This document shows positions 3,650 through 6,600 of a stretch of DNA of 64,000 nt, piece by piece (the first letter of the stretch is position 1; every line of letters begins with the position of its first letter). Under the pieces are notes generated by a model. That model was not told where the DNA came from and did not search any database. It saw only the letters and a program-made list of their open reading frames with translations. A program made the position numbers and the translations under genes. The DNA is from Microbotryum violaceum (lineage: Eukaryota), in NCBI GenBank assembly GCA_001244265.2, contig CDLV01000016.1, positions 682,001-746,000 on the forward strand, written 5' to 3'.

Positions 3650-6600
3650 CAGGCGCCAGCGGACTCGGGCGTGCGCCCGCTAGGCCGCCCCCTTGAGGTG
3701 GCAACTTAGACTCGCGCAGCTGCCTCGGCGCCCTAGCAAGTTCACCCGCGGCTGGGCCTATCCCAGTGCGGGCCCCTCTTTCTGTTTCTTAGCTTCCCTC
3801 TCACCACTTCTGTTCGACAACCAACCTCTCCTGACATTAGTGGTGATTGTCTCATAGGTTATTTGCCCAACGACCTACCGCTGGCATGGACGACACATCG
3901 CCACCCCTAGCGACGGGTGTCCACCCGACATTTCCCGCCGACCAGCTTGCCGCCCTTACGTCGCTGCTGTCGGGTCTCACCGCTGCCGCGTCCGGCACTG
4001 TCACAACCACCACGTCGTCTAGTACCACCCGCCCCGCCTTTCCCAAGCACGCACGCTTGGCTGGGCCAAAGACATTTGCCAATTGGACACGCCAACTTCG
4101 CCTGTGCCTACCGGACAACATCCGCTCGTACGTCCTCGACGGCATTGTGCCCGTCGACTGGACCCCTTCGCAACGCTCCGCCCGCGATGTCGTGGCCCGC
4201 GAGCTTCTTGCGAACTCGATCGACTCGGCCGAAGTCTCGGCAGTCCTCGACGCAATCCCTACCGCTGACCTCACAGCGCCCAAAATGTACTCGACGCTGA
4301 AATCGCGGTATGCTCCTGACGACGCCATTCGCACGCTCGAGCTCTTCTCCCGACTGTGGAGTTTCCGGCCCATGCCCGGCACCGTTGGCGAATTCGACGG
4401 CTGGATCATGGAGTTCAAAGCTATTGCGCAAGAAATCATAGATACGAAGACCACTATCAACGATGTTCTCGCCACACTCCTCCTTGCCATCGCTCACCCG
4501 TCCCTCGAGAGTTTCAAGGCGTCGTTCACCGATGAACAGCGCACTCAACGAGCTCTCCCTGCCATTGATTCGCTCGCCGACCGCATGCGTGTTCAACTCC
4601 GGTCCACCAACGTCCCCAGCACCCAATCGGCCCTTCTTGCCTCGTCGTCACGTCCTACCCGTCCCAAGTGTCTCGCCTGTCGCAGCCCTTCGCATCGTGT
4701 GGCGGAGTGCCCTGTGAGAGCGAAACACCCGCCGCCAGGACCCTGTCGCTCCTGCAAGCAGAATCACTGGTCTTTTGACTGCAAAAAGGCTCTCGAGAAC
4801 GGCAAGAAGGCCGACACGGCGAACTCGATCGCCGACTCGCAACACCATGTCGGATGTATCGCCACCGGCCTTCTCGCTCGTCGCCGCCAGCTTCGCACCA
4901 ACTCTTTCGTTGTTGACTCGGGGCCACCTCGCACATGGTCTCGGACAAGTCGCTGTTCACGACCTATCGCCACATTGCTCCCACAAAGATTGGAGGCATT
5001 GCAGGGGGCATCAACGCCATCGGAACGGGAAACATCGCCTTCGTTGCCGCCTCAGGCCATCCGATCACGCTCACAGGCGTGCTGCACACTCCCGGCCTAT
5101 TCGTCAATCTCCTCTCGGTCTCTCGACTTTGCGACACCGACGACGTCCGTGTTGCCTTCACGAAACACGGCATTGACATCGACAAAGACGGCAACAACAT
5201 CGCTGAAGGCACGAGGCTCGACGAGGGACTCTACTTGCTCGACGCTGATCATTCCAAATGTCAGCACCTTGCTCTCCTCTCTCGTTCACAGTCTTCCGTG
5301 CCCCTGCTGACTCTCCACCGCTGCCTCGGCCATCTCGCACCGTCGTCCATACAGAAGATGGTTGCCGCTGGTTTGCTGGAGGGTCTCAGGGCCGGATATA
5401 GTGACGAAGAGGTAGAGAAGTTCGTCTGCAATGCTTGCCTCAGTGCCAAGGGCCATCGTCTTCCTTTTCCCGATTCGGATTCGCACTCCTCCGAGAGACT
5501 CGGCCTTGTGCACAGTGATGTGCTTTCCCTCCCGGAGCGTTCCTTGACTGGCAAACGATACCTGGTCACGTTCCTCGACGACTACTCGCGCAAACTATGG
5601 GCCTACGCGATCGGACATAAAAGCGAAGTCTTCAGCGTGTTCAAGACTTGGCTTGCCGAGGTCGAGCTCGAGACAGGTGCAACACTGAAGGTCCTCCGAA
5701 CTGACAATGGTGGCGAGTATTGCTCGAGAGCATTCACAGAGTTCTGCAAGGTGCGAGGTACGCGTTGACAATACTCTATCCCTCGCACGCCTCAACAAAA
5801 CGGTCGGGCGGAGCGGGTCAATTGTTCCATTGTTGAAGGTATTCTTGCCCTTCTGGCGGACGCCCATCTACCCAAGACATTCTGGGAGGAGGCTGCGGCT
5901 TACTTTGTTTACTGCAAGAACCTGGTTCAACACTCGGCTCTCGACAAGGCAACACCAAACTCGGTCTGGCAGGGCGGACGCACCACAGCCTCCGCGCTTC
6001 ACCCGTTCGGCTGTGCGGCTTGGCTCACGGTCGCGCCCGAACTTCGCTCTAAACTCGACCCGAAAGCGGTTCGCGTCCTGTTCACCGGCTACGACCTGGC
6101 TTCCAAAGCCTTCCGCTTCTACGACACTGCAACAAAGAAGGTGACCCTGGGCAGAAATGCTACCTTCCTCGACACCGAATTCCCCGGGTTACGTTGCGAC
6201 TCCGCCGAGCAAGACGATGACACGCACTTCGCCAGCGCTCCCTTTGCCGACCCTCACACCACCGTCAAGTCATGGACCCCACTAGTAAGGTCGGCGCACA
6301 TGGACGTCTCATCCCCTCTTGATGATTCTTCCATGAGCGCCGTTGACGTGGCCCCAGGGTACACTGGCGGATCCTTACTTAATTCCACAGATGCCGAATC
6401 GCCCGCGTCACCGTCGCCTGCGCCGTCCTCGTCACTGCCTCCTGAGCCGGCCTCGTCCCCGTCGGCTGCATCATCGTCCGCGCCCTCACCGTCGTTGGCT
6501 GCATCGTCGTCACCTTCGGCCTTACCCACTGAATCTGAGTACTCCGCCGATCCTCTTGACCTCATCGGCTCACAGCCCCAGGCTCCCCTCGACCCAATGG

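Follow-up and report, generated by a model that had tools for sequence, protein, structure and literature searches.

A near-identical 106-nt candidate alternative intron in the Pol coding sequence of two Ty1/Copia families of Microbotryum

We analysed a stretch of 64,000 nucleotides of the Microbotryum violaceum genome (assembly GCA_001244265.2, contig CDLV01000016.1, positions 682,001 to 746,000 of the forward strand; hereafter the window, position 1 being its first letter), the first 25 kb of which are filled by nested Ty1/Copia retrotransposons. Two families of these elements, A and B, share a short patch of sequence in the linker between integrase (IN) and reverse transcriptase (RT). This patch is the best-conserved piece of the A and B elements, and it is set in their worst-conserved region. 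Our favoured explanation, to which we give an even chance of being right, is that the patch is a structured alternative intron within coding sequence, kept uniform through overlapping constraints together with the exchange of short tracts between the families.

BLAST comparison of the 137-nt patch of family A with the window returned five copies and, in addition, one 17-nt chance match. The five copies are as follows.

6259-6395, plus strand: family A patch, with a near-perfect core at 6273-6392 (40 codons, in frame).
18076-18212, plus strand: duplicate copy of the family A patch, 100% identical to 6259-6395; inside a 99.8% duplication and not independent.
12481-12617, minus strand: family B1 patch, 94.2% identical over 137 nt, within an 857-amino-acid (aa) IN-RT open reading frame (ORF) at 10942-13515; intron equivalent 12486-12591, donor GTACGG.
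660-796, minus strand: duplicate of the family B1 patch in a B element cut by the window edge, 94.2% identical over 137 nt; not independent.
22521-22657, plus strand: family B2 patch, 94.2% identical over 137 nt, in a copy that is 95.7% identical to B1; intron equivalent 22547-22652, donor GTAAGG.

Self-comparison of the window showed that positions 1-7722 are repeated at 11821-19539 with 99.8% identity, a segmental duplication that carries parts of one B and one A element. Because of this duplication, the five copies amount to only three independent sequences (A, B1 and B2). All five sit at the same position of the Copia A/B linker, and within the window we found no copies in unrelated genes of the kind that would mark an introner-like element. 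The patch was not present in the IN-RT linkers of the two other Copia families of the window (7086-10286 and 59591-62104), and scans of metagenome contigs for exact matches to parts of it returned 0 loci.

Between families A and B, the patch is 94% identical as a whole block and about 97% identical in its 120-nt core, compared with 69-76% elsewhere in the elements where these can be aligned. When A and B1 were compared in 60-nt windows over 3.4 kb, identity reached 0.93-0.98 in the patch, at best 0.88 elsewhere (in the integrase core), and fell to 0.05-0.5 in the adjoining linker. These values bear out the initial annotation of this DNA, which had described about 115 nt as near-identical in A and B at five places (its positions agree with BLAST to within 1 nt) and the surrounding linker as different. 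The block of high identity starts 11-26 nt before an intron donor and ends 2-5 nt after the matching acceptor, and thus corresponds to the following candidate spliced unit.

6285-6390, plus strand: 106-nt GT..AG alternative intron in coding sequence (exitron 2), recognised by its sequence signals and by a joint from 6284 to 6391 in the public run X18.

The signals of this intron are GT at 6285-6286 (the intron starts GTAAGG), CTTAC at 6374-6378 and AG at 6389-6390 (it ends CAG). As a motif match, CTTAC is branch-like, with its A lying 13 nt before the 3' end, and TTAAT occupies 6379-6383; the branch-point consensus is YTNAY or CTRAY.

Contigs of four public sequencing runs were placed on positions 1-7085, namely X1 (5137 contigs), X15 (578), X16 (245) and X18, a 2025 run with a different organism label. 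The types of the runs were guessed, X18 and X16 as RNA and X1 and X15 as DNA-like and from other organisms, and the joints considered here are those listed for each run. One X18 contig joins 6284 to 6391 and so skips exactly 106 nt with GT..AG ends, at a depth of 21.2, with 64 letters on its shorter side and 0 letters that fit both sides. A transcript spliced in this way would read ..CCCCACTA^ATGCC.. across the junction. Three of the four joints listed for X18 are canonical in the sense orientation of elements that lie on opposite strands (6284 to 6391, 5259 to 5355 and 1744 to 1840); none of these three is among the joints listed for X1, X15 or X16, and none of the other 11 joints listed for the four runs has canonical GT..AG ends. 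The frame-shifting cryptic intron that the initial annotation had proposed at 6285-6390 is therefore matched by signals, by a computed +1 shift and by an X18 contig that lacks exactly these 106 nt (one contig, RNA by guess). We consider it probable that the 106 nt are really excised from transcripts.

The joint could have arisen without productive splicing, as a DNA deletion or processed copy in the X18 organism or as an assembly artefact; or the intron could be a weak one that stalls spliceosomes and thereby feeds RNA interference (RNAi). Such origins would be in keeping with a run that is RNA by guess and with comparison runs from other organisms, and neither donor (GTAAGG or GTACGG) is optimal under the fungal consensus. 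For the RNAi version it also counts that Microbotryum has Dicer, Argonaute and RNA-dependent RNA polymerase (PMC4469406), and that in Cryptococcus poorly spliced transposon mRNAs are turned into small interfering RNA (siRNA; PMC5851062). We nevertheless regard these origins as quite improbable, given that three sense-oriented GT..AG joints occur in two elements on opposite strands and show no microhomology, that a processed DNA copy would be a relic of splicing in its own right, and that an RNAi liability would be lost instead of staying identical across two families. Were X18 DNA, copies without exactly these segments would still be fossils of spliced RNA.

Contigs of other runs end at the edges of the patch (X15, 5856-6274; X16, 5937-6385), and ends at 6274 and 6385 are typical assembly-graph behaviour at sequence common to several families. 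This hints that the patch is common to families in the organisms of those runs too.

Because 106 cannot be divided by three, splicing changes the reading frame and truncates the protein. Removal of the intron moves translation into the +1 frame, where the stretch up to the stop comprises 85 Arg/His/Pro-rich codons in A and 35 codons in B1. As computed from the frames, the product spliced at 6285-6390 keeps Gag, protease (PR) and integrase and loses RT and RNase H (RH), and thus retention of the intron is needed for RT, and only unspliced RNA passes the patch on. A nuclear-localisation-like gain from the Arg-rich tail was considered and dropped, the +1 frame of a Ser/Pro-rich, CG-rich linker being Arg-rich by composition. 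The suggestion of the initial annotation that the patch is a switch between subgenomic and full-length RNA found no support, as its splicing would cut Pol after integrase and would not yield a Gag RNA. A second, 95-nt coding intron at 5260-5354 fits that role better, and its copies are listed here.

5260-5354, plus strand: exitron 1 of family A, 95 nt (GTCAGC..CTGAC..ACAG); X18 joint from 5259 to 5355, GT..AG, depth 48.5.
1745-1839, minus strand: exitron 1 of family B; X18 joint from 1744 to 1840, CT..AC (GT..AG on the minus strand), depth 47.
About 13566-13660, minus strand: duplicate copy of exitron 1, by homology.
About 17077-17171, plus strand: duplicate copy of exitron 1, by homology.

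Exitron 1 lies within the gag_pre-integrs (HHCC) region at the N terminus of integrase and is in frame when retained. Its splicing places a TAA exactly at the junction in both families (after ..LLDADHSK and ..LLDADHTK, respectively), just downstream of protease, and the spliced message is predicted from these frames to give Gag-protease. Exitron 1 is 80-85% identical between A and B and has no fold of its own (z-scores of +0.06 and +1.01). Because exitron 1 too has joined forms in X18 and yet is less conserved and unfolded, splicing alone would not require the near-identity of the patch, and something extra appears to act there.

A stable hairpin at 5290-5395 (plus strand) and 13523-13628 (minus strand) pairs the branch region and acceptor of exitron 1 with the downstream exon. 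Its energies are -45.0 and -40.7 kcal/mol (z-scores of -2.62 and -2.56), which ranks it with the top windows when each element is scanned. Compensatory changes were found by RNAalifold in 1 of its 33 pairs, which is weak evidence because the region also encodes a conserved protein motif. Two other ideas about this part of the elements were set aside. Removal of the 95 nt as a way of restoring the frame between the split ORFs of A and B was rejected, as the HH..CC motif is in frame there and the splits are due to 1-nt deletions. The depth of X18 contigs, 114-240 over 3793-5214 against 17-64 over 5215-6873 (X1, X15 and X16 being roughly flat), was not used as a sign of a short Gag-PR RNA, as contig depth cannot rank parts of a gene.

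When it is retained, the patch forms part of a continuous protein. In B1, one 857-aa ORF spans the integrase domains rve and SH3_retrovirus, then the patch and then RVT_2 (Pfam), and the patch supplies 40 in-frame residues of the integrase-RT linker. Exitrons are exonic introns with coding potential, and the patch has this character, lying wholly inside the ORF and in frame when retained. A protein search with the linker peptide yielded 35 relatives, whose source names are all Microbotryum silenes-dioicae or M. saponariae. Of the 35, 31 contain the first half of the patch peptide or more, and 26 contain it in full; in a count of 38 proteins that includes the three of the window, 36 have the first half or more and 31 the full peptide. 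The patch is in frame in every long ORF and annotated protein examined, save a few aberrant gene models. Across 31 aligned proteins, identity in the patch is 0.93-0.96, equal to that of the catalytic cores, whereas the flanks reach 0.63-0.72. With phmmer, the patch peptide had 8 matches among 1.84 billion representatives, two of which (P0042 and P0043) are translated tandem repeats.

Conservation at the level of catalytic cores, in frame in nearly all the ORFs and proteins examined, could mean that the patch is kept only as a needed C-terminal tail peptide of integrase, such as a protease cleavage site or a docking motif for a host factor. We consider this extremely improbable as the sole cause, although such a peptide may add to the constraint. 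Among codons that specify the same amino acid in A and B1, synonymous differences were found at 2 of 38 in the patch and at 95 of 180 in the integrase (Fisher p = 1.3e-8), and of the four differences between the A and B1 patches, two are non-synonymous. With synonymous sites frozen in this way, protein selection alone cannot explain the patch. The comparison points to one of two causes: either the bases of the patch are themselves constrained, or both families received the patch from a recent common source.

A constraint on the bases themselves could come from RNA structure. The minimum free energy (MFE) of the 106-nt intron of family A is -40.2 kcal/mol, with a z-score of -3.98; none of 200 shuffled sequences reached this stability, and the MFE structure accounts for 0.54 of the ensemble. 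The z-scores of the intron fold are -2.61 for B2 and -2.47 for B1; the A patch folded with its flanks gave -3.15, compared with -1.73 for the antisense strand. In a GC-adjusted scan of 106-nt windows, the patch ranked within the top 4-6 by stability out of 334 windows in A and 504 in B1. The predicted shape is a three-way junction made of the following parts.

6284-6379, plus strand: closing stem, in which the donor (A)GUAAGG at 6284-6290 pairs with CCUUAC(U) of the branch region at 6373-6379; MFE prediction.
6292-6342, plus strand: long hairpin of three segments (CGGCGC/GCGCCG, CAUGGA/UCCAUG and CAUC.../GAUG), predicted in all three variants.
6352-6370, plus strand: small hairpin CCCCAG/CUGG-GG, MFE prediction.

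The fold drawn in the initial annotation, with an AGUAAGG/CCUUACU stem, a long hairpin and a CCAG/CUGG hairpin, is the same as this computed MFE structure. A scan of 6150-6500 against Rfam 15 found no credible family, the one sub-threshold match having an E-value of 0.24 and 21 bits against a gathering score of 45. Mirtron-like and kissing-loop readings were dropped, as the shape is a three-way junction and the loops are non-palindromic.

The same fold might serve a different purpose, as a cis-acting signal of the genomic RNA (for packaging, dimerisation or nuclear export) whose position within an intron would restrict it to unspliced RNA, with splicing secondary. A signal of this kind would agree with conservation at the nucleotide level across families, with a well-defined fold (the MFE structure at 0.54 of the ensemble) that is stronger in the sense orientation (z-score of -3.15 versus -1.73), and with the absence of intron-less DNA copies among the joints listed for X1 and X15. 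In retroviruses, too, the packaging signal is found downstream of the major splice donor. Recombinants between families exist, and a shared signal would allow A and B to be co-packaged. Set against this, the known packaging and dimerisation signals of Ty1 and of retroviruses are situated close to the 5' end and not between IN and RT, no Rfam family was matched, and two other Copia families in the window (7539-10109 and 59591-62104) do without the patch. We judge the signal reading, in which splicing is secondary, to be rather improbable. A combined version, which we think unlikely, is a programme of two exitrons in which the fold of exitron 2 doubles as a mark of the genomic RNA for packaging, dimerisation or export; only RNA that encodes RT would then be copied, and families with the signal in common would be packaged together and recombine there.

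Exchange between the families is visible in the proteins of relatives. Three proteins of M. saponariae (P0019, P0021 and P0022) resemble B in integrase (0.95), in the left flank of the patch (0.86) and in RT (0.93-0.94; 0.88 in P0021), and resemble A (0.93) in the 77 residues to the right of the patch, the switch from B to A falling at the last residues of the patch, between ..NSTDT and ESSSSPSPEP.. These mosaics indicate that short tracts move between the A and B families, with one tract edge at the patch. More broadly, the proteins P0016-P0022, all named M. saponariae, come from B-type elements with an A-type tract of about 77 residues downstream of the patch and a B-type RT beyond it. The patch may itself be an exchanged tract, or it may be an island of homology at which template switches resolve. 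A-like and B-like proteins of two other named species both carry the patch. From the mosaics we conclude that recombination probably contributes to its identity.

The stronger form of this idea is that the patch is a recombination tract without a function of its own, produced by double template switching of co-packaged RNAs or by gene conversion, that has had little time to diverge, its use of GT..AG being incidental. Identity of 97% in the patch beside flanks at 69-76% or beyond alignment is the pattern of an inter-family tract, and the short A-type tract in B-type M. saponariae elements, whose left boundary falls at the patch's 3' end, and a chimeric A/C/B copy in the window itself (19647-24880) show that such exchanges occur. 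The few differences between A and B, at 3-4 of 120 core sites as between B1 and B2, loops conserved as well as stems, and the narrow lineage also favour a recent tract. Against it stand the coincidence of the patch edges with the spliced unit in both B1 and B2, a fold that is among the most stable in either element, and the presence of the patch in A-like and B-like proteins of two other species, so that it is no one-off of this genome. Moreover, in 31 proteins the patch is as conserved (identity of 0.93-0.96) as the catalytic cores, and crossovers at the patch would also be expected if the homology island had been there beforehand. A tract without function is a possibility that we take seriously and lean against. 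In the initial annotation, the structured intron had been opposed to a scenario of A/B recombination with neither covariation nor splicing. The mosaics of M. saponariae support the recombination in that scenario and covariation was indeed not seen, while the X18 joint from 6284 to 6391 (one contig, RNA by guess) speaks for splicing.

Several observations weigh against a structured alternative intron, the explanation that we favour. As to structure, B1 with its poorer donor (GTACGG; GUACGG in RNA) loses the closing stem in its own fold, and two substitutions appear to weaken pairs when the alignment is read against the fold, namely the B1 change from GTAAGG to GTACGG and a U to G change in B that ends the CAUGGA/UCCAUG stem. 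RNAalifold found compensatory changes in 0 of 34 pairs, with three distinct sequences and few variable sites; because there are only three sequences and a handful of variable sites, no covariation is expected. The structured RNA element of the initial annotation is thus upheld by its energy (z-scores of -3.15 to -3.98) and not by the covariation check. As to conservation, the core has 3-4 A/B differences in 120 sites, a divergence similar to that between B1 and B2; the 97% identity extends to loops and unpaired bases and so fits recent common ancestry better than old constraint; and the patch peptide is limited to a narrow lineage, its confinement to Microbotryum resting on the source names of 35 proteins. 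As to splicing, each joint is represented by one contig in one run whose RNA type is a guess, the joints are flagged "between: not known", and the runs without the joint (X1, X15 and X16) are from organisms other than that of X18. X16, guessed to be RNA, has no splice joint, and its contig 5937-6385 runs unspliced through the donor. As to the product, we know of no use for a Gag-PR-IN protein without RT, and the Arg-rich tail of the spliced frame of A matched no protein at E <= 0.01 among proteins of 150-2000 residues, which is weak evidence.

With these points in mind, the structured alternative intron would work as follows. The patch would be a 106-nt GT-AG exitron in the Pol region of one clade of Microbotryum-type Ty1/Copia elements (A and B). 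Retained, it would leave an RNA that encodes the whole Gag-PR-IN-RT-RH polyprotein, the only form able to copy the element intact; spliced, it would give an mRNA for Gag-PR-IN without RT or RNase H. The GUAAGG/CCUUAC stem may limit or tune the use of the donor, such that most RNA remains unspliced. The unstructured 95-nt exitron at the start of integrase would provide a Gag-PR message with a stop at its junction, and splicing could in this way grade the output of Gag-PR, IN and RT. The patch would then most likely owe its near-identity to two causes: coding, splice signals and fold constrain the same bases, and short tracts are exchanged between co-resident families, whose crossovers may resolve at the homology island that the patch provides.

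Splicing of this general kind is known from other Ty1/Copia elements. In Drosophila copia, barley BARE1 and Arabidopsis EVD, frame-shifting alternative splicing brings in a stop and Gag is made in excess (PMC5580714). The Microbotryum elements resemble copia, BARE1 and EVD as Ty1/Copia elements with one long ORF and a partly spliced coding GT-AG intron, with a frame shift and stop, and with unspliced RNA as both full-length mRNA and genome; the 95-nt intron at 5260-5354 is closely like theirs, with its junction stop just after protease. Unlike theirs, the patch intron lies between SH3_retrovirus (the C terminus of integrase) and RVT_2, not after gag or around protease, so that PR and IN remain in the spliced product and only RT and RNase H are lost. 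Further differences are its small size (106 nt), a predicted fold of very high stability (z-score of about -4), near-identity across families and the basidiomycete host. The stop after the patch junction is also less immediate than in EVD and BARE1 (85 codons in A, 35 in B1). Our literature searches on Microbotryum and on fungal retrotransposon splicing turned up no report of such Copia splicing, and with moderate confidence we propose that the patch intron is a new variant of Copia alternative splicing.

Other systems share single features with the patch. Like exitrons, the patch lies wholly in a protein-coding exon, is translated in frame if retained and is optionally spliced; unlike exitrons, it has a length that is not a multiple of three, so that the result is truncation and not internal removal, and in a retrotransposon only the retained form is heritable. 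The major splice donor of HIV-1 is held in an RNA hairpin, and the patch donor is likewise paired in a stable predicted local structure, in a retroelement for which a large share of the RNA has to stay unspliced. In contrast to HIV-1, the predicted partner of the patch donor is the branch region of the same intron, and the element is a Copia retrotransposon and not a retrovirus. The Ogre Ty3/gypsy elements of legumes carry an intron between protease and RT, and its splicing is needed to join the pol ORFs. Ogre too is an LTR (long terminal repeat) retrotransposon with a spliceosomal intron within pol whose partial splicing sets the proteins made, but in the Microbotryum elements it is retention that gives the full ORF and splicing that breaks it. 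Finally, the Cryptococcus SCANR system also concerns a basidiomycete with transposon transcripts that contain inefficiently spliced introns and with host RNAi genes (PMC5851062, PMC4469406). That system is a host defence that acts on poor introns, which does not predict a near-identical folded intron across families.

The single-ORF Copia problem, how to make much Gag and little Pol, has been solved by splicing in flies and plants. If confirmed, the present case would extend this solution to a basidiomycete with two short coding introns, and would add a retroelement intron that is near-identical across diverged families and whose donor pairs with the branch region. It would also offer a small natural model in which to study how RNA structure governs the ratio of spliced to unspliced RNA. 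The patch marks a site at which families exchange sequence, which matters for the classification and dating of Microbotryum Copia copies.

The elements that carry the patch are arranged as follows.

3650-7085, plus strand: family A Copia element, decayed, with a 1-nt deletion after 4919 and a stop at 5766-5768; cut at 7085 by another element.
10331-15468, minus strand: family B1 Copia element, with 227-nt LTRs at 10331-10557 and 15241-15468, by self-comparison.
1-3648, minus strand: second family B copy, cut by the window edge, by self-comparison.

The order of their Pfam domains, Pol_BBD (protease), gag_pre-integrs, rve, SH3_retrovirus and RVT_2, is that of Copia and places the elements in Ty1/Copia. 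An extra G after 4919 in A and after 1607 in B is present in most contigs of the public runs and missing from the window copies, and the split ORFs of A and B are thus explained by the loss of one G in each copy (4919; 1607). The B1 element has one 1-nt deletion near 13428, placed by homology with the duplicate copy (1-nt deletion after 1607). These losses created overlapping frames that mimic an intron-joined gene.

The chimeric copy at 19647-24880 begins with an A-type 5' part (97% identical to 3803-4875), which is followed by 435 nt identical to 7086-7520. Its 3' part, from integrase to LTR, is of B type (B2) and 95.7% identical to B1, and the repeat in its middle is a third family. Two further Copia families, at 7086-10286 and 59591-62104 (both minus strand), have SH3_retrovirus and RVT_2, and the latter additionally has Pol_BBD, gag_pre-integrs and rve. 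Ty3/gypsy-type ORFs (RVP_2, RVT_1, RNase H, Integrase_H2C2 and rve) and a LINE-like pair (Exo_endo_phos, RVT_1 and zf-RVT) were found at 26656-33424 and 51305-55368 (both plus strand). The window is thus a transposon-dense region, and Copia-like elements are the most frequent transposable elements in Microbotryum (PMC4469406).

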